Notes: generated from the letters alone by a model not told the origin. A stretch of 53,473 bases of DNA from an uncultured Candidatus Peregrinibacteria bacterium (GCA_937127165.1 CAKZLR010000051.1:1-53473); one strand, 5' to 3'. Shown: positions 3,471-49,788, counted from the stretch's first letter. Translations and numbers: made by a program.

Positions 3471-5948
3471 CTAAATTTTCTCAAAATCCTCAGTCAATTT
3501 TTCTACATTGCTCTTTGTACCATAAACTAAAATTCCTAAGTATTTAATCTGTTCGGCAGTTTTTTGGAAATACTCAACACTTATTTCAGTATCGTGACTC
3601 ATAGCTTGCATTTCCTCGGTAAAGACTGTGACTAAGAGTTTTTCCTGTTCAGCTTGCCTTTTTAATCTTAGCAAATCCAGAGAATTTATCGACTTCTTAA
3701 TGACAATTGAAGGTTGGATGTTTATATCAATTTGCTCTCCGTCCTTAGTTTTAACTTTTTCTATTGTTAGTATGTTTTTTCTTTCACGTGCGATAAAGTT
3801 AGCAGTTAAGTGGGCAACTGTATTGTATTTTTGCCAATCGTTCATTTTGTTTTCATCTAAAAGCACAATATGAGCCACCATTGTTCGGTTAGACTTTCTT
3901 ATCGGATTATTTTCATTACGAACATGTGGAAAAGTGACACATTCTTTAATATGCTTACCAAGCAAGAATGACAAAAATCTTTCACTAGTGCCAAAACCAG
4001 CCATTGGTGGAGTACCAAGCTCCAAGGCTTTAACATAGTCTTCATCCATAAATTGAGCTTCCTCGTCTCCAGCATCTCTGGCGGCTTGTTGTTGTTCAAA
4101 TCTACCAAATTGGTCTATTGGATCATTTAACTCACTAAAACATTTACCCAATTCGGCAGTGCCAGCTACAATTTGCCATCTTTCGGTCAAATCCGGTCTG
4201 GGTGGGTGCCTTTTAGCTAATGGCTCTAACTCAACCGGAACTAAAGCCAGAAAAATGGGATTTTGAATATATGGTCTAGCTACTTTTTTGTAAATTTTAT
4301 CCATAACACCAGATATTGCTGTACCCGGTTCGATTTCTACCTCGTTATCTTTAGCAATTTGCAACAATTCCTCCAAAGATTTACCTTCAAAATCGACTTT
4401 ACCTTGAGAATAAAATCTGATAGCTTCGAAATATGGGATAATCGGCCAACCAAAGATATTAGCCTCTTCCGGTTTTAGCTCGATTTTAGACTTATTTTTT
4501 TTATCAGAAATATCTGGTTCCCAGACTTTATCTACAGTTGCTAGTCCCCAACCGTTTTTTAAGGCAGTTTCTAGGCTACACCATTCACCCCAGTTAATTT
4601 GGTGGCCATAATAATCTGTTTGGATCATTTCACCTAAAATTTCTTGGACAATTCTTTGATAAATCCGTTTAACCAATTTCATACCATCCGTATAGTCGGC
4701 ATATGCCCAATACCACTCAATCTGAGTATATTCTTGTAAGTGTTGGGGACTGGAGCCCTCGTTACGGAAGATACGACCAATTTCAAAAACTTTTTCAAAA
4801 CCTCCAGCAATCAATTTTTTGAGAGGTAATTCAAGTGAAATTCTAAGATAAACTTCCTGGTCTAATTCATTGTAAAAAGTAGTGAAGGGCCTAGCTTCAG
4901 CTCCACCTGGAATGTGTTCAAAAACTGGGCACTCAACTTCTAAGAAACCTTCTTTTTCCATTTCTTCTCGCCAAATTGACCAATATTTTTGTTTTAACCT
5001 TACCAAATCTCGTACTGACAAACCATTTGGATCTTTGGTGTTCATCTTAAAATCCACTACACGGTTGGTGTATCTTTCTTCAAAATTCTCATAATCTAGT
5101 TTTTCTGGCAGTGGTCGTAGACATTTAGTCAAAATGATAAAAGATTCAACAAACAAACTAGGTTCACCTCGCTGTGATTTGTCTAAATAACCACTAGCTT
5201 GAATATAGTCACCTTCATCGATTAGGGTTTTTAGGTCTTCAAAAGTCAAGGAATTTTGTAAAATCTTGTTAAGTTTTTTTTCTATTAAGTTGGGTCTGTT
5301 ATCAATTACATCTTTTTTAAAGATAAACTGAAAACCTTCTGGTAAACTTTCATCTTCTATGGTAGCAAAACCAATTTTACCGCTCAGTCTTTTAGATTTG
5401 ATTCTACCAGCTAGAACTACCCTTTGGTTTGGTTTTAAACTTATTTGCAATTCAGTCTCGTCTTGCGGATTTTTGTTTTTAAGTCCGAAAAAAGTATTCA
5501 AGTACTCTTCTCTAGTTTCCATAGAAACTTTGAGCAGGTTGGGGAAAAATTTTCTTACTTCGTTTAACTCACTCTCATCAAAATCTAAGATATCTCCAAT
5601 TTCTTCATCTTCTAGGTCTAAATCGACATCTTTAGACATCTGTCTAAGAAATAACCTTTTTTCTTGTTTTTCTATCAAACTACTAGGAAACAAGGCTTGA
5701 TCCAAAAAATGATACTGCATTTCCGGTTCGGGAAACTCGTTTATAAAATTATTCAAATCGTAATCATGAACAAAATTAAACCAAAAACTAACAAAACCTA
5801 AAGTAAAATCTCGCCGACTTTTGACTGCAAAAGGCTCGTGTCCTTTGGCTCGCAGTTTTTCCATTTTTTGGATTCGTAAACTTCTTTGAGAGTCAATTGA
5901 GGATAGTGAAATATTTTGACTGCCGCTTGAAGTACTTTTTTTTGACAT
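3471..5948 (-). CDS. lysS: Lysine--tRNA ligase (class II) with an N-terminal insertion and an extra C-terminal domain of about 140 aa
   Basis: OB-fold segment VVLAGRIKSKRLSGKIGFATIEDES. Class II motif 2 region FRNEGSSPQHLQEYTQIEWY. Motif 3 region GTPPMAGFGTSERFLSFLLG. At 825 aa it is about 300 aa longer than typical LysRS. Confidence 0.9.
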   Translation of the reverse strand: MSKKSTSSGSQNISLSSIDSQRSLRIQKMEKLRAKGHEPFAVKSRRDFTLGFVSFWFNFVHDYDLNNFINEFPEPEMQYHFLDQALFPSSLIEKQEKRLFLRQMSKDVDLDLEDEEIGDILDFDESELNEVRKFFPNLLKVSMETREEYLNTFFGLKNKNPQDETELQISLKPNQRVVLAGRIKSKRLSGKIGFATIEDESLPEGFQFIFKKDVIDNRPNLIEKKLNKILQNSLTFEDLKTLIDEGDYIQASGYLDKSQRGEPSLFVESFIILTKCLRPLPEKLDYENFEERYTNRVVDFKMNTKDPNGLSVRDLVRLKQKYWSIWREEMEKEGFLEVECPVFEHIPGGAEARPFTTFYNELDQEVYLRISLELPLKKLIAGGFEKVFEIGRIFRNEGSSPQHLQEYTQIEWYWAYADYTDGMKLVKRIYQRIVQEILGEMIQTDYYGHQINWGEWCSLETALKNGWGLATVDKVWEPDISDKKNKSKIELKPEEANIFGWPIIPYFEAIRFYSQGKVDFEGKSLEELLQIAKDNEVEIEPGTAISGVMDKIYKKVARPYIQNPIFLALVPVELEPLAKRHPPRPDLTERWQIVAGTAELGKCFSELNDPIDQFGRFEQQQAARDAGDEEAQFMDEDYVKALELGTPPMAGFGTSERFLSFLLGKHIKECVTFPHVRNENNPIRKSNRTMVAHIVLLDENKMNDWQKYNTVAHLTANFIARERKNILTIEKVKTKDGEQIDINIQPSIVIKKSINSLDLLRLKRQAEQEKLLVTVFTEEMQAMSHDTEISVEYFQKTAEQIKYLGILVYGTKSNVEKLTEDFEKI

Positions 5949-17248: not shown

Positions 17249-18877
17249 TTAATTTCTTTGGTTTTTGTATAAAATTGATAAACAAAATATCAAGACTGAA
17301 AACCAAAAAATTCCTAATTCAAAAAACAGCATTAGCCAAAGATTGTGAATCGGTTGGTGTATACTCAAAGCAAGGTCAGAATTGTAGCTTCTGTGATAAA
17401 AGGGGTATTGACCTAACCCGATTCCAAAGATTTTTTGCCACCAAGGTAGTTGCCAAAAAGTTTCCCAAAACCTAACATATTCATTAATTCTAACCCAATC
17501 GCTACTATAACTATAGGCAAATCTAGAAAAAAATACGAATCCAAAAGTTATGATAAAACTAGATAGAATATACCATTTCTGTTTTATAAATTCAAAGATT
17601 TTAGTCTTTAGCAGTTCTGAGCTAAGGTTCTGTAAACCTATTTTTTGATCCAAAAAATAAACTAATATTAAAAAAATTAGGCTAATCCAAGCAATTCTAC
17701 TAAAACTTAAAACTACAATTGCTCCGCTAATTAGTTTTAACCACCAACTTAGGGATTTTAATCTGTAATTGGTATTGTATTTTTTAAGTAAAATTGCTAA
17801 CCAAAACCCTAAAATACCAACAAAACCAAGAATATTTGGATGTTGCATCAAACCGTAACCTCTTAGTAAGACTAAATAATAATCGCCTATAGGTTGTCTA
17901 GCTGTAAATCTGGTATTGAGAGACACTGGTGGTTCGCCTAAAAATTGTAATCCTAAATTGTGTCCAGTAATAACTTGACCAGTCGCTACTACTAGATTTT
18001 GAATAAAAAATAATGTTAATAAGAATAGAACACTGGTGAATAGAATTTTGGGAATGTTTTCGGTATAGTTTAGAATTTGCTTAAAAATGGACATCCCCGA
18101 AATAGTGATTTTTGTAGCTAATGAAGAGTTTTTAGAAGAAACAGAGGTTTGTTCAAAATTTAACCGGTCGTTTTTAAGAAAAGGTGTTAACAAATTTTGA
18201 CCAGATTGAACAGGTAATCTTTGAAAAGTGTTGATATCGTGTTTCAAGTATTTCCAATTATTAAAGTTTAGATTTTCTAATCCCGAATTAAACAAAAATG
18301 ATTTTTGAGATTTTATCTGAGAAAGTAAACTAGTTGGTTTTTGAAGTAAACCAGAAATAAAACCAAGCCAGATTATTTGAAAGATAACCCAAGCTAGCAA
18401 AACCCCAAAAGGGCTAGAAAGTAGCAAATGATCAAGTAAAGAGTATGCTCCTAAAACAATCAGCCAAATTTTGAATAGGGGTTGTCGAAACCATCGCCAA
18501 AAACCAACTAAAATTGCTAGCCACAGAACCAAATTTGACCAAAAAATAATCATACTAGCTAGCTCATCTAGGCTAGGGTTGGCTAGGTTGATTTGCCATA
18601 AAGAGATTGTTAACAGCCCTAAAACAAAAAATTTGTAGAGAATATTTTGTCGAAAAAGTTCAAAAAAGACTAGTATCAAAACAATTAAGTTGCCTAAAGA
18701 TAAGACAATATCCAAAAAGTTATTCACTAAAGAATAGCCTAAAAAAGGATTAAAATTTACAAATTTGGGCCACAACAAAGCTAAACAAGCAAGAAATAAA
18801 CAACTAGCCAAAACTAAATGCTTAAATAGATATTTAAGCTGAAATGTATTATATGTCACAACTTCTACATAAGTCAT
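17249..18877 (-). CDS. O-antigen ligase/polymerase (Wzy_C)-like polytopic membrane protein
   Basis: 542 aa with more than 10 hydrophobic helices. The segment LSFSRIAWISLIFLILVYFL followed by a loop resembles the Wzy_C core. Assignment is moderate. Confidence 0.55.
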   Translation of the reverse strand: MTYVEVVTYNTFQLKYLFKHLVLASCLFLACLALLWPKFVNFNPFLGYSLVNNFLDIVLSLGNLIVLILVFFELFRQNILYKFFVLGLLTISLWQINLANPSLDELASMIIFWSNLVLWLAILVGFWRWFRQPLFKIWLIVLGAYSLLDHLLLSSPFGVLLAWVIFQIIWLGFISGLLQKPTSLLSQIKSQKSFLFNSGLENLNFNNWKYLKHDINTFQRLPVQSGQNLLTPFLKNDRLNFEQTSVSSKNSSLATKITISGMSIFKQILNYTENIPKILFTSVLFLLTLFFIQNLVVATGQVITGHNLGLQFLGEPPVSLNTRFTARQPIGDYYLVLLRGYGLMQHPNILGFVGILGFWLAILLKKYNTNYRLKSLSWWLKLISGAIVVLSFSRIAWISLIFLILVYFLDQKIGLQNLSSELLKTKIFEFIKQKWYILSSFIITFGFVFFSRFAYSYSSDWVRINEYVRFWETFWQLPWWQKIFGIGLGQYPFYHRSYNSDLALSIHQPIHNLWLMLFFELGIFWFSVLIFCLSILYKNQRN

Positions 18878-19034
18878 TTTTTATAAATTTGTCTAAAAGA
18901 TTATATCTTTATCAAAAATTTAAATTAAATTTAGTGTGGATATTCCGCACTAAAATGGTAGATAAATTTAAACAATCTTGACAAGATTAGTTATTAAGTT
19001 ATTATTTTTTTACTTTTTGTTAAATTTTTTTATT

Positions 19035-19220
19035 ATGATTAAAGCTCAAAATCCAAACACAGAAGAATGGTTTGATCTACCCGAGGGTACTTTGGTCGGG
19101 GAGATAGTAACCGATCCTATAACAGGAGAAATGTTCGAAGTGGTCGCAATTGGAGATGGTAAAAACGGTGGAATCGCTACTTTAAGACTAGTAAATGTAG
19201 AAGAGGATTGGGGGCAATAA
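19035..19220 (+). CDS. LysW-like amino-group carrier mini-protein (Cys-less, C-terminus EEDWGQ)
   Basis: 61 aa from ATG 19035: MIKAQNPNTEEWFDLPEGTLVGEIVTDPITGEMFEVVAIGDG...LRLVNVEEDWGQ*. The acidic C-terminal EDWG motif and the beta-hairpin-like layout parallel LysW (C-terminal EDWGE). It lies 180 nt upstream of a LysX-type ligase. The ORF track starts at TTG 18978. Confidence 0.5.
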   Translation: MIKAQNPNTEEWFDLPEGTLVGEIVTDPITGEMFEVVAIGDGKNGGIATLRLVNVEEDWGQ

Positions 19221-19400
19221 AAAGCATAAAACCATGATTTTTTTGGTTTGTTAATATGTGTTTTTAATACAAATTTGTTTTTGGTGTTGCCGTTTGCTGT
19301 AACTAGCTCTTTGTCAATATTTTTTCAAGTCAAATTAAAATTACAAAAAGCTAAAATTTTAAACGATTTTGAAATTAACATTTGCTACATTTGCTAAATT

Positions 19401-20240
19401 ATGAAAAAAATAGCACTCCTTCATACAGGAATTAGATTAGATGAAAAACTAATCATTGAGGCGGCTGAAAAACGACGTATTCATATTGAACTGGTCAATT
19501 TTAATGAAGTTATTTTAGACCCTCAGCAAATAGATTACTGGTTACAGTTTGATTGTCTTTTAGAAAGATGTGTCTCTACTGTAAAAGGTAACGCGGCGAT
19601 TGAATTTTTTAGTAATCTTGGACTTAGAATAGTAAATAATAAACAGATAATGAATATTTGTAACGACAAATTTCAGACCTCTACAATTTTAACAAAACAC
19701 AAAGTTCCTCACCTTAAATCCATTTTGGTTTTTGGGGAAAACCAGGTAAGACAGGCTGTTGATATGCTTGGTGGTTATCCTGTAGTTATTAAATCTAGGG
19801 AAGGTTCTTGGGGTAGATTTGTCAGTAAAGTTAATGATGAAGATTCTTTGGAGGCTATATTTGATCTTAGATGTCAGGTTGGAGTGACTCATCAAGCTCA
19901 CATCGTTCAAAAGTACATAAGTAAGAAAAATAACCGAGATATTAGGGCTGCTACTATAGATGGTAAAGTTGTGGCCGCAATATATCGCACTACAGAGCAC
20001 TGGATCACAAATACTGCTAGAGGGGCTAAAGCTACCTACTGCCCTATAGATGAAGATTTACAGAATATTTGTAAAATGGCTTCTGATGCAGTCGGTGGCG
20101 GAATTTTAGGAATAGATGTTTTTGAAACTGATACTGGTTATATTATCAACGAGATAAACCATACAATGGAGTACAAGAATGTACAAGCTGCTACAGGAAT
20201 CAACATTGCTGATAAAATTTTAGATTTTTGTGTTGGCTAA
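19401..20240 (+). CDS. lysX: LysX/ArgX/RimK-family ATP-grasp ligase
   Basis: Motifs GYPVVIKSREGSWGR, RDIRAATIDGKVVAAIYR, EHWITNTARGAKA, GGGILGIDVFE, INEINHTMEYKN. These closely match remembered LysX signatures (HWITNTARGG, NEVNHTMEFKN). Length is 279 aa. Confidence 0.85.
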   Translation: MKKIALLHTGIRLDEKLIIEAAEKRRIHIELVNFNEVILDPQQIDYWLQFDCLLERCVSTVKGNAAIEFFSNLGLRIVNNKQIMNICNDKFQTSTILTKHKVPHLKSILVFGENQVRQAVDMLGGYPVVIKSREGSWGRFVSKVNDEDSLEAIFDLRCQVGVTHQAHIVQKYISKKNNRDIRAATIDGKVVAAIYRTTEHWITNTARGAKATYCPIDEDLQNICKMASDAVGGGILGIDVFETDTGYIINEINHTMEYKNVQAATGINIADKILDFCVG

Positions 20241-20472
20241 TTTTCAACTCATTTTTAGAATAATTTGGAAGGATATGCATTTTTTCATATCTAAAGTGAT
20301 AAATTAAAGTGATATTTCAATTAGTCAGAATTTTTTATTTGTAGTGTTTGCTAGTGAGCTTGATTTTTCGAAGCACAAAAAGTGAGCACTAAGCACTTGA
20401 CAAAAGTAGATTTTGTCCTTAACCTCCCAGTTCTATTAGCTTAAATTAGTTTGAAAACTATATATCTATAAT

Positions 20473-21072
20473 ATGATCGGCACCAATCAAATATATGAGT
20501 TATATTTCATTCTTAATCCAGAATTATCTGCTGAGCAAATAGATACCCAGATTTCTAAAATCTCTAAACTTGTAAAAGATGAAATAGGTGGAGAAAATAT
20601 AGAAATAGAAAAACAAGGTTTAAAAAGATTAGCTTATAGAGTCAAAAAACATTACAGTGGGTCTTATGTATTAATGAATTTTGAGCTAGAACTGGAAAAT
20701 TGTAAAAAAATTGGTAGTTTGGAGAAAAAATTAAATATAGAAAAAGAGGTTCTGCGATATATAATTCTTAATCAAACTGAATTTCTTATTCAAAAATCAA
20801 AAGAAAAACCTTCAGCCACGGAAATCAAGAGTCATAATGAATTAAATAAAAAAGCTAAGAGACCTAAAGACAGAAAATGTATAGTTAAACATATGGGTTT
20901 AAGAGTAATAGATTACAAAGATGTGGATTTCTTGCAACAGTTTGTGTCTCCATATGCTAAGATTTTCCACAGGGATAAAACCGGTACCGGTGCAAAGTTT
21001 CAAAGAAAAATAGCTAAAGCAGTAAAAAGAGCCAGACATATGGCCTTAATGCCTTTTACTCCTCAGGAGTAA
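20473..21072 (+). CDS. rpsF: Fused ribosomal proteins S6 (N-terminal) and S18 (C-terminal)
   Basis: The N-terminal ~95 aa YELYFILNPELSAEQIDTQISKI...GLKRLAYRVKKHYSGSYVLMNFE is S6. A basic linker follows. The C-terminal CIVKHMGLRVIDYKDVDFLQQFVSPYAKIFHRDKTGTGAKFQRKIAKAVKRARHMALMPFT is S18. It is one uninterrupted ORF. Confidence 0.85.
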   Translation: MIGTNQIYELYFILNPELSAEQIDTQISKISKLVKDEIGGENIEIEKQGLKRLAYRVKKHYSGSYVLMNFELELENCKKIGSLEKKLNIEKEVLRYIILNQTEFLIQKSKEKPSATEIKSHNELNKKAKRPKDRKCIVKHMGLRVIDYKDVDFLQQFVSPYAKIFHRDKTGTGAKFQRKIAKAVKRARHMALMPFTPQE

Positions 21073-45001: not shown

Positions 45002-45434
45002 TTTAATCATCATTCGGATTTTCTTTGACTTGTGTTTCAAGCATGTGCGTGGCTGGTAGTCGGTCTAGTGTTTGGTTTTGGTGTTTTCTGGTTAGATTTA
45101 TTGAAAAAATTCAGATGTATAGGTCAGACTAAAAAATATTTAATCGAGAAATATGGGAATAGAGAGGGATTTTGCTATTCGGAAAGTGCCTCGATAAGAT
45201 GACTGGTTTGAGGGGAACTTAATTAGAAATTGTAGATGCAGTTTTTTCAGAAGGATAACCTCTTTGTTCATAAGTGTTTATTTACTCACATGACGGAATA
45301 AAAATTATTGTTCTATAAGTTTTGGATTTTGTAACTTATCTAAAATTTGTCACAAACTTTCTCAGCTTGACCGTGAGAGTATTTTGCGACAAAAGAAAAG
45401 GTTTCTTCAAAAGCTTAGTCTAAACTTTATATTT

Positions 45435-46406
45435 ATGGATAATAGTACTAAGAAATTGAAAAAAATTCACCTAAGACCAAAGACCATAGAAGTTCTAGAA
45501 AAATTAACTGGACTTAAAATTTATACAAAGAATGTTTGGAATATAGACAAAATGGAGTTAGGCAATCTGCTACAGCAGGGTAGAATAAATGCTTTAATGT
45601 ATCTGCAAAGATACCAGCAAGGACAAAAACTAAGTATTTTTGAAGAACAAAATTTGTTTAAAGCCCTTGTAGAGATTCAGCAGAAATTATCTTTAAACCA
45701 AATTCCGATACATATTGAATGTTATGATGTTTCCCATTTTGGTGGCAAATATGTCTATGGTTCAATGGTCGTATTTATTGAAGGTCGAAGTGTCAAAAAG
45801 CTTTATAGATTGTTTAAAACAGCTGAAAAGAACGATGATTTTGCTAATTTGCGGGAAGTTCTTCTAAGAAGATTTAAAAAATGGGAAGAAAATCAACACC
45901 AACCGCCTACAATTAAATTGAATTTATCTACCAAACCTATTCTAAAAAAACCTTGGGAACTACCAAATTTAATTATTATCGATGGTGGGAAAGGTCAGTT
46001 ATCGTCTGCTAATCAAGTGTTGCAAGAATTTAAGCAGAAATATTCTAGTATTACTACCCAGATTTGCGCACTGGCTAAAGGAAAAGAAGAGATATTTTTG
46101 CTAGACAAAGACGAGTCAGTTTTGTTTGAAGGACAGGCTAAGTTTTTATTACAAAGAATTAGAGATGAAGCTCATCGTTTTGGTATCACTAACAGTCGCA
46201 AAGCTATAGTTCGCCAGTCGTCTAAATCCAGTTTAGATTCAATCAAAGGAATTGGAAAGGTAACTAAAAATAAATTGTTAACTATTTTTGGATCCATAGA
46301 AAACTTGATTAATCATTATTATTTTGATCCCCAAACTTTACAGCAAATCTTAACCAAGACTCAATTTAAAAATCTTGAGAGTTGGATTAGAAACGGGGAA
46401 ATTTAA
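45435..46406 (+). CDS. uvrC: UvrC-like protein consisting only of the C-terminal half (RNase-H-like 5'-incision domain plus HhH); the GIY-YIG and UvrB-binding regions are absent
   Basis: Motifs IECYDVSHFGG, NDDFANLREVLLRRFKK, PNLIIIDGGKGQL, LLQRIRDEAHRFGITNSRK, LDSIKGIGKVTKNKLL. Nothing resembling a GIY-YIG module lies in the ORF or the 380 nt upstream. An alternative TTG start is at 45384. Confidence 0.8.
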   Translation: MDNSTKKLKKIHLRPKTIEVLEKLTGLKIYTKNVWNIDKMELGNLLQQGRINALMYLQRYQQGQKLSIFEEQNLFKALVEIQQKLSLNQIPIHIECYDVSHFGGKYVYGSMVVFIEGRSVKKLYRLFKTAEKNDDFANLREVLLRRFKKWEENQHQPPTIKLNLSTKPILKKPWELPNLIIIDGGKGQLSSANQVLQEFKQKYSSITTQICALAKGKEEIFLLDKDESVLFEGQAKFLLQRIRDEAHRFGITNSRKAIVRQSSKSSLDSIKGIGKVTKNKLLTIFGSIENLINHYYFDPQTLQQILTKTQFKNLESWIRNGEI

Positions 46407-48765: not shown

Positions 48766-49788
48766 TCAAAGTAAACCTTGTGTATCTTCAAAAATATCAT
48801 TTTGAGCTTTTTGTATATGATATTTCTGAGTTGCAGGTATATTTTTGGGGGTATTATGTTTTGCGGCTATAACCTTGCAGATTAATTGAGCTACTTCTAT
48901 ACCTATCCCTTCTATACCTAATCCTGCCAAAAATTTATAGTCTTCTTTTTTTCTAGAATCGTCTATGGATTTTTTAAGATTGTCTACAGATTTTGGTCCA
49001 AAGCCTTCTAACTGAGAAATTTTAGAATAGGGCAGTTTGTAGAGATCTGGAATGTCTTGAATACCATATTCACTGATAAATTTTTGTATGTGCTTATCTG
49101 ATAAACCAACGATATTAGCTATGTCTCTTTGGCAAAAATAACTCAATCTACCAAGTATTTGAGCTGAACAATTTTGTTGATTTGGACAGATTAAATCAAT
49201 CTTCGTAGGGCTGGTAATTAGTTTTGTACCACAAGCCGGGCAAACCTGAGGGGCTAAAAATTCTTTATTAGTTTCGGTATCTATTCTCAAATTTACTAAC
49301 ACATTTGTAATCTCCGGGATAATATCCCCAGCTTTGCGAATAACTACTGTGTCATTTTGTCTTAACCCTTTAACTAAAAATTCTTTGTAATTATGCAGTG
49401 TAGCTCTTTTGATCACGGTACCAGCCAGCAAAACAGGTTCTAATTCTGCCACTGGTGTTAGTTTGCCTGTACGACCGACTTGCCAGGTGATATCTAAACA
49501 TTTTGTAGTTATTTCTTCTGCGGGAAATTTTACGGCACACCAACCTCTGGGGGTTTTGCCAACAACTCCAAGTTGAGCAGCTAAATTATTATCATTGAGT
49601 TTGACGACCACTCCGTCAATATGGTATTTCATACTATCCCTTTTTTTTTCTAAATCTTGAACCCGTTCCCAAACTTCTTCTGCCGAATCAGCAGTCATAA
49701 TTTCGTTGTTTGTATCAAACCCTAATTGTCTCAAAAATTCCAACTCTTCAAGATGACTGGCGAAATTGGATGATTCAAATTTTTCCAT
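48766..49788 (-). CDS. ligA: NAD-dependent DNA ligase LigA fragment (truncated gene, split gene or pseudogene)
   Basis: Present: HIDGVVVKLND (motif IV), RGWCAVKFPAEE (motif V), OB fold WQVGRTGKLTPVAELEPV, Zn finger CPACG...CPNQQNC, and a partial HhH region. Absent: domain Ia, the KxDG adenylation motif and BRCT. Only 48 nt separate its ATG from the upstream gene's stop. Confidence 0.85.
   Translation of the reverse strand: MEKFESSNFASHLEELEFLRQLGFDTNNEIMTADSAEEVWERVQDLEKKRDSMKYHIDGVVVKLNDNNLAAQLGVVGKTPRGWCAVKFPAEEITTKCLDITWQVGRTGKLTPVAELEPVLLAGTVIKRATLHNYKEFLVKGLRQNDTVVIRKAGDIIPEITNVLVNLRIDTETNKEFLAPQVCPACGTKLITSPTKIDLICPNQQNCSAQILGRLSYFCQRDIANIVGLSDKHIQKFISEYGIQDIPDLYKLPYSKISQLEGFGPKSVDNLKKSIDDSRKKEDYKFLAGLGIEGIGIEVAQLICKVIAAKHNTPKNIPATQKYHIQKAQNDIFEDTQGLL

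Follow-up and report, generated by a model that had tools for sequence, protein, structure and literature searches.

A LysX ligase and a cysteine-free LysW carrier protein encoded apart from the other genes of their pathway in an uncultured Candidatus Peregrinibacteria bacterium

The stretch of DNA analysed here, called the window, comprises 53,473 nucleotides (nt) from an uncultured Candidatus Peregrinibacteria bacterium (GCA_937127165.1, CAKZLR010000051.1:1-53473) and encodes on its plus strand an acidic protein of 61 amino acids (aa) followed by an ATP-grasp ligase of 279 aa. [quoted passage not shown] The locus is probably no novel tailing system but holds a LysW and a LysX that belong to a clade in which the carrier has lost its zinc site, and separation from the other pathway genes is its sole unusual feature. 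We think it somewhat probable that a canonical pair was detached from the rest of its operon and that the carrier, which ends in Gln, is deamidated before use. An earlier interpretation made without database searches (the sequence-only reading) had taken the missing cysteines and the terminal Gln as marks of a special or repurposed system. That view is not supported, because both traits occur in relatives with complete LysW-X-Y-Z-J-hydrolase operons, L092 being an example. Comparison loci from other genomes and metagenomes are designated by L numbers, with L001-L003 representing a sister species that is syntenic over at least 20 kb.

Identity of the carrier and the ligase

The lysW-like gene (positions 19035-19220, +) begins with an ATG at 19035, ends with a stop codon at 19218-19220 and specifies the product MIKAQNPNTEEWFDLPEGTLVGEIVTDPITGEMFEVVAIGDGKNGGIATLRLVNVEEDWGQ. 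As the sequence-only reading had described, this open reading frame (ORF) lies 180 nt 5' of the ligase gene, lacks Cys and ends in EEDWGQ; the protein contains 12 acidic and 3 basic residues, and the last codon is CAA (Gln). A match to the NCBIfam LysW/ArgW model NF041070 was obtained (E 1.4e-7, 31 bits), which is under the curated cut-off of 75, and a Pfam search gave no match. When a profile of nine Cys-less relatives was aligned by hhalign with 22 LysW proteins of the four-cysteine (Cys4) type, the alignment extended over the full length (98.2% probability, E 4e-14). It placed N6, T9, D27 and T30 at the positions of the four zinc-binding cysteines, all of which are indeed missing. The profile of the Cys-less clade also matched PDB chain 5k2m_E (E 7.5e-5).

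A model of the mini-protein was built with AlphaFold2 from a 4-sequence alignment and was predicted to be all-beta, with a predicted local distance difference test (pLDDT) score of 86.5. The top five PDB matches of this predicted structure in Foldseek were all LysW chains, with target-normalised template modelling scores (TM-scores) of 0.60-0.75. Four homologues were recovered in a search of 5.8 billion proteins (E 1e-14 to 1e-33), and a scan of GTDB genomes with patterns from the mini-ORF gave no match. In every relative examined, the homologue of the mini-ORF adjoins a LysX gene. On its profile alignment and modelled fold, the 61-aa protein is a LysW predicted to bind no zinc; it has an acidic surface, the EDWG tail and, by prediction, the fold of LysW, in agreement with the carrier proposed before.

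In comparison with the LysW/ArgW proteins of Thermus thermophilus, S. tokodaii and T. kodakarensis (PDB 3WWL, 3VPB_E and 5K2M_E), the window protein is alike in size (54-61 aa), acidic surface, modelled all-beta fold, EDWG tail, full-length profile alignment and the position of its gene directly 5' of lysX. It differs in having no zinc-binding cysteines, in ending with Gln instead of Glu and in scoring below the NCBIfam cut-off. LysW has been described as needing both its zinc-binding cysteines and its terminal Glu (PMC10433800).

The ligase gene (19401-20240, +) scored 278.9 bits against the curated LysX model TIGR02144 (cut-off 275.6), and its product contains the LysX pre-ATP-grasp domain PF22626 (E 2e-16) and the RimK-like ATP-grasp domain PF08443. 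The best PDB matches were T. thermophilus LysX (198 and 183 bits) and T. kodakarensis LysX (151 bits), followed by S. tokodaii ArgX (117 bits) and RimK chains (69 bits). LysX and RimK belong to one family, and the family model rimK_fam gave 260 bits. The RimK equivalog model NF007764 gave 78 bits against a cut-off of 331, and a RimK function, which would have contradicted the LysX-type ligase of the sequence-only reading, was rejected because the enzyme is so far from RimK. The motifs on which that earlier assignment was based, EHWITNTARG (residues 199-208) and NEINHTMEYKN (residues 250-260), are present. At residues 135-139 the ligase has GSWGR (G135-S-W-G-R139), a motif described as recognising the EDWGE tail of LysW (PMC10433800).

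Among 51 columns conserved in at least 95% of 143 LysX sequences, the ligase keeps 47, and the four changes are to S, V, T and Y. Only one of these, the conservative L160V, is specific to the window and sister species, which also have to themselves the conservative V185T at a less conserved column. Neofunctionalisation was considered on the basis of the four deviations and rejected, since two of them recur in relatives with in-operon genes and the remaining two are conservative. By homology, the 279-aa enzyme is a LysX, which would ligate alpha-aminoadipate or glutamate, through the alpha-amino group, to the C-terminal residue of the carrier in an ATP-dependent reaction.

The enzyme thus shares with the known LysX/ArgX proteins (TIGR02144; PDB 3VPD, 1UC8, 5K2M and 3VPB) the pre-ATP-grasp domain, GSWGR, the conserved ATP-grasp residues and a score above the cut-off; it differs in its A-I-T-NV specificity signature, discussed below, and in that its gene does not adjoin lysY, lysZ and lysJ. 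With RimK, the glutamate ligase of ribosomal protein S6, it has in common the ATP-grasp family and a gene that adjoins an S6 gene. The differences are its score far below the RimK model and its LysW-recognition motif, together with an S6 that is fused in the window and has no free acidic C-terminus.

Both genes are real and under purifying selection, as judged from the ratio of non-synonymous to synonymous substitution rates (dN/dS). For LysX the ratio to the sister species was 0.064 at a dS of 0.63, similar to the adjoining RecA, RuvB and TGT; neighbouring housekeeping genes gave 0.03-0.19. For LysW it was 0.38-0.47 over the whole gene and 0.12 over the core (codons 2-37 and 53-60). The remaining loop codons 38-52 (19146-19190), which lie between the globular part and the tail and form an indel-prone, length-variable region across the family, gave about 1.7. 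With homologues in hand and a constrained core, the mini-ORF is not a chance reading frame. LysW identity to the sister species was 0.77, and in-operon pairs at similar LysX divergence had 0.75-0.96, so that the divergence of LysW relative to LysX falls within the in-operon range. In relative-rate tests no acceleration of LysX was found in the stand-alone lineage against in-operon relatives. None was found in the Gln-tailed species against its Glu-tailed sister either, with 5-10 and 5-7 unique changes, respectively.

Related operons, the Gln tail and the last-step hydrolase

Cys-less LysW genes were identified in operons that carry the whole pathway. The nearest relative other than the sister species, L173 (66% LysX identity), has LysW (ending EEDWGE), LysX and LysY in contiguous order. 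L092 (61%) has a Cys-less LysW ending in DEDWGQ, followed by LysX-LysY-LysZ-LysJ and a 217-aa protein, and L091 (60%) has its Cys-less LysW in a full W-X-Y-Z-J-hydrolase operon. The same full arrangement is present in L009 (57%), together with homocitrate synthase, and in L010 (56%), together with homocitrate synthase, homoaconitase and homoisocitrate dehydrogenase. Cys is absent from the window protein and from 10 related LysW, and Cys-less LysW was also found in two Deinococcota metagenome-assembled genomes. Among 1.8 billion representative sequences, the Cys-less clade akin to the window protein makes up only some seven clusters at 50% identity. Judging from these sequences, the missing cysteines characterise a small clade. 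Of 80 GTDB loci retrieved with a LysX alignment, 79 had a LysW-like ORF, mostly directly 5' of LysX, and LysY/Z/J stood beside LysX in nearly all. One short metagenome contig (L008, 3-1101) has the order reversed, LysX preceding a Cys-less LysW directly after which the contig ends; its LysX is extended at the C-terminus by some 30 residues and, like the window enzyme, carries the A-I-T-NV signature.

The CAA codon is identical in three other assemblies from different samples, which share 99.7-99.9% identity over 4-6 kb with few single-nucleotide polymorphisms. A sequencing error at the last codon was therefore rejected, and the terminal Gln, as first read, is real. The LysW of the sister species ends in Glu and that of the window species in Gln. 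A Gln-ended LysW was found in 17 of the 141 loci with a readable tail (approximately 12%), from several phyla and with GC contents of 0.32-0.72, and where it could be assessed the Gln tail always lay inside a full cluster. Because close in-operon relatives differ only by Glu or Gln (L018/L096, L093/L097 and L015/L018), the end position of LysW evidently switches often. The terminal Gln is best described, from the aligned tails, as a recurrent natural variant of LysW.

The hydrolase of the last step was of two mutually exclusive kinds. The M20 peptidase LysK was encoded in 32 loci and an EgtC-like protein in 60, and no locus had both. The EgtC-like protein has approximately 220 aa, begins with MCR(F/I)LL, is distantly akin to EgtC and the class II glutamine amidotransferases, and closes LysW operons; examples are found in L009 (15145-15819), L010 (13925-14605), L092 (5453-6106) and L091 (13027-13695). 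This distribution suggests that it takes the place of LysK as a non-orthologous substitute. All 14 Gln-ended loci with a scorable hydrolase had the EgtC-like protein, the remaining three being the window and two incomplete contigs, and a Gln tail was found in none of the 32 M20-LysK loci. The association of tail and hydrolase gave a Fisher p of about 0.002, with loci counted without phylogenetic correction.

EgtC hydrolyses a gamma-glutamyl amide. An enzyme that cleaves LysW-gamma-lysine by EgtC-type chemistry could also turn a terminal Gln into Glu. There is a parallel in the Pup/Dop/PafA system of actinobacteria, in which a small protein is attached by way of the gamma-carboxylate of the Glu at its C-terminus. 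In some species Pup ends in Gln and is deamidated first by Dop (Pup-GGQ); at a later stage, Dop also breaks the gamma-glutamyl amide bond. The two systems resemble each other in the small carrier-like protein and in a terminal Gln needing deamidation, which for LysW is a hypothesis drawn from co-occurrence; they differ in that the folds and enzymes are unrelated and that Pup is attached to a protein lysine, LysW to a free amino acid. By this analogy, the Gln tail suggests a Pup-like deamidation step. A literature search found no papers on EDWGQ, on LysX in the Candidate Phyla Radiation (CPR), or on LysW with EgtC or with a glutamine amidotransferase.

Separation from the operon and the possible explanations

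The scheme that we favour, as somewhat probable, is as follows. In this low-GC, Patescibacteria/CPR-like bacterium, LysW and LysX would be a working pair, in which LysX would load alpha-aminoadipate or glutamate onto the C-terminus of LysW once the terminal Gln had been converted to Glu. The likely agent of the conversion would be an EgtC-like N-terminal nucleophile (Ntn) amidohydrolase that replaces the M20 LysK. In this species as in its sister, the pair would have become detached from the hydrolase gene and from lysY, lysZ and lysJ, which would most likely lie elsewhere in the genome, and the neighbouring S6-S18 gene would be unrelated to the pair.

Several observations weigh against this scheme. 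Searches by tblastn with LysY, LysZ, LysJ, the M20 LysK and the EgtC-like hydrolase gave no match, neither in the window nor in the sister contig, of which 20 kb were covered. The Pfam assignments of the other ORFs are in line with this, and the earlier statement that no lysY/Z/J/K-type genes are nearby is thus borne out. LysY stands directly beside LysX in all 24 loci with at least 46% LysX identity and enough flanking sequence (L009-L027, L091, L092 and L173; nearly all CPR), and for this reason the split is unusual in this clade. The proposed deamidation is drawn from co-occurrence only, without phylogenetic correction, and the predicted hydrolase is not encoded in the window.

Two further results count weakly on the same side. 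Among the matches listed from samples with this organism or its sister, the contigs with LysY were Thermus-like only, at 62% GC. When proteins were searched with the incomplete LysY from L173, the matches listed, mostly fragments, included none on the 110,845-bp or 82,184-bp contigs.

The specificity signature of the ligase also belongs with these points. Five residues of T. thermophilus LysX set its specificity, and three types of signature have been characterised, namely F-I-T-NS for LysX, I-Y-V-GF for ArgX and Y-I-T-NA for the bifunctional enzyme (PMC12998189). The window ligase has A184-I194-T205-N260-V261 (A-I-T-NV), which matches none of the three and has, compared with the LysX type, Ala for Phe at position 1 and Val for Ser at position 5. 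Among 267 relatives, F-I-T-NS was found in 178 and x-I-T-NV (x being H, T, N, A or V) in about 60. The latter group includes L092 and L021, which have full operons, L021 carrying homocitrate synthase and homoisocitrate dehydrogenase, and L173, in which LysY adjoins. Since the signature is common to these in-operon relatives, it predates the stand-alone state. The x-I-T-NV loci were enriched for Gln-ended LysW (5/9 against 12/130 loci sampled). In sequence, evolutionary rate and specificity motif, nothing separates the window ligase from its in-operon relatives.

Additional tblastn searches with homocitrate synthase, homoaconitase and homoisocitrate dehydrogenase were likewise negative over the window and the 20 kb of sister sequence, and a relaxed tblastn for remnants of lysY, lysZ and lysJ gave a best E of 0.07 and no match beside lysX. 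A LysX without LysY/Z/J within flanks of up to 10 kb was found in L063, L066, L070 and L074 and in none of the CPR relatives sampled. Thermus-like contigs with 62% GC and a Cys4 LysW (ending EEAEDWGE) occur in samples of this organism or its sister (L157, L160 and L164), and their presence in the same samples suggests that the source is a hot-spring community.

It is possible, although rather doubtful, that the pair is an orphan with a new role, lysY/Z/J and the hydrolase having been lost and LysW-LysX kept for a function other than the synthesis of lysine or ornithine, such as tagging or holding an amino acid or loading another amine. In two species at a dS of about 0.6 the pair stands alone, and LysX is still under strong constraint; there is no lysY remnant beside lysX; the signature departs from the LysX type at positions 1 and 5; and CPR genomes are commonly without amino-acid biosynthesis. 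The signature, however, did not arise with the orphan state, as L092 and L173 have it in common (A/T-I-T/V-NV); the lineage-specific changes in LysX are limited to L160V and V185T; no acceleration was seen; and a Gln-ended carrier without a deamidating hydrolase would offer no gamma-carboxylate. Also unlikely is a combination in which the lineage has lost lysY/Z/J and the hydrolase and keeps a zinc-free LysW and LysX under strong selection for a function outside lysine and arginine synthesis, while Gln-ended LysW in general would be pro-carriers deamidated by an EgtC-like amidohydrolase that also replaces LysK.

That the pair is instead a decaying relic, with the pathway gone, both genes heading to loss and the Glu-to-Gln change as the first inactivating one, is very unlikely. 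The change does remove the attachment carboxylate, the LysW dN/dS is raised over the whole gene and above all in loop residues 38-52, and the spacer between lysW and lysX has lengthened to 180 nt. Against this, the ORFs of both genes are intact in both species, LysX and the LysW core are constrained (0.064 and 0.12), the unique LysX changes are equally few in the Gln-tailed and Glu-tailed species, Gln tails are common in intact operons, and the LysW of in-operon pairs diverges as fast.

The least credible explanation, which we regard as extremely improbable, is a ribosome-linked one, with the ligase acting like RimK on S6-S18 or another ribosomal target and the mini-protein serving as a cofactor. 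It would account for the position of the ligase gene 232 nt 5' of rpsF-rpsR, and LysX and RimK are of the same family. It is contradicted by the scores of the ligase against RimK (78 bits with the equivalog model, 69 against 198 bits for LysX in PDB), by the absence of the adjacency from about 165 other loci, by an S6 without a free C-terminus in a fusion ending TPQE, and by the separate -35 box of the S6-S18 gene.

Surrounding genes and implications

Three plus-strand genes were identified in the region, the third, after lysW and lysX, being the S6-S18 fusion gene rpsF-rpsR (20473-21072, +). This adjoining gene, which lies outside the system, begins 232 nt downstream of the ligase gene and is a single ORF of 199 aa, as had been noted before, with Pfam S6 at residues 8-99 and S18 at residues 145-193. 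A basic linker of some 45 residues connects the two domains, and the sister species has the fusion with 90% conservation. The gene has its own conserved TTGACA (-35) box approximately 75 nt 5' of the start codon. The link to rpsF drawn in the sequence-only reading was rejected, as the adjacency is not conserved. It looks coincidental because this species and the syntenic sister are alone in having S6/S18 beside lysX; none of the approximately 165 further LysX or LysY loci shows this arrangement.

A putative promoter, TTGACA-16-TATTAT (18978-19005, +), was identified about 30 nt 5' of the lysW start codon by consensus match only, 11 of 12 positions being matched; its TTGACA box is kept in the sister contig L001. 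A longer ORF from the in-frame TTG at 18978, where the start had been placed earlier, was rejected, as this TTG belongs to the -35 hexamer. ATG 19035 is the start because all homologues begin at MI(K/R/Q)AQNP. The lysW-lysX spacer (19221-19400, 180 nt) could be aligned with the sister contig only in part, and no terminator-like site was found in it. The corresponding gap is 1-15 nt in L009, L091, L092, L007 and L173 and 134 nt in L010. An Rfam search of 18700-20700 gave no credible match.

The other ORFs of the window are housekeeping genes by Pfam, including FtsA, RecA, RuvB, TGT, aminoacyl-tRNA synthetases, transaldolase and glutamate dehydrogenase. One (3471-5948, -) encodes an 825-aa class II aminoacyl-tRNA synthetase of the Asp/Lys/Asn type that is extended by some 170 residues at the N-terminus and has a DUF2000 domain at the C-terminus. 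Two ORFs, at 45384-46406 and 48766-49788, each cover part of their family. One has the RNase H and HhH domains of UvrC without the N-terminal nuclease part, and the other is an NAD-dependent DNA ligase beginning inside the adenylation domain; they may be split genes, shortened genes or genes with miscalled starts.

For the LysW family, the rules of zinc-binding cysteines and a terminal Glu are both broken in operons that look fully functional. Cys-less LysW genes will be missed in annotation because they fall below curated cut-offs and have no Pfam match. Should the EgtC-like enzyme serve both to release the product and to mature the carrier, the pathway would include an activation step and a last enzyme that have not been described, and Gln-ended pro-carriers would represent a Pup/Dop-like logic in amino-acid biosynthesis.

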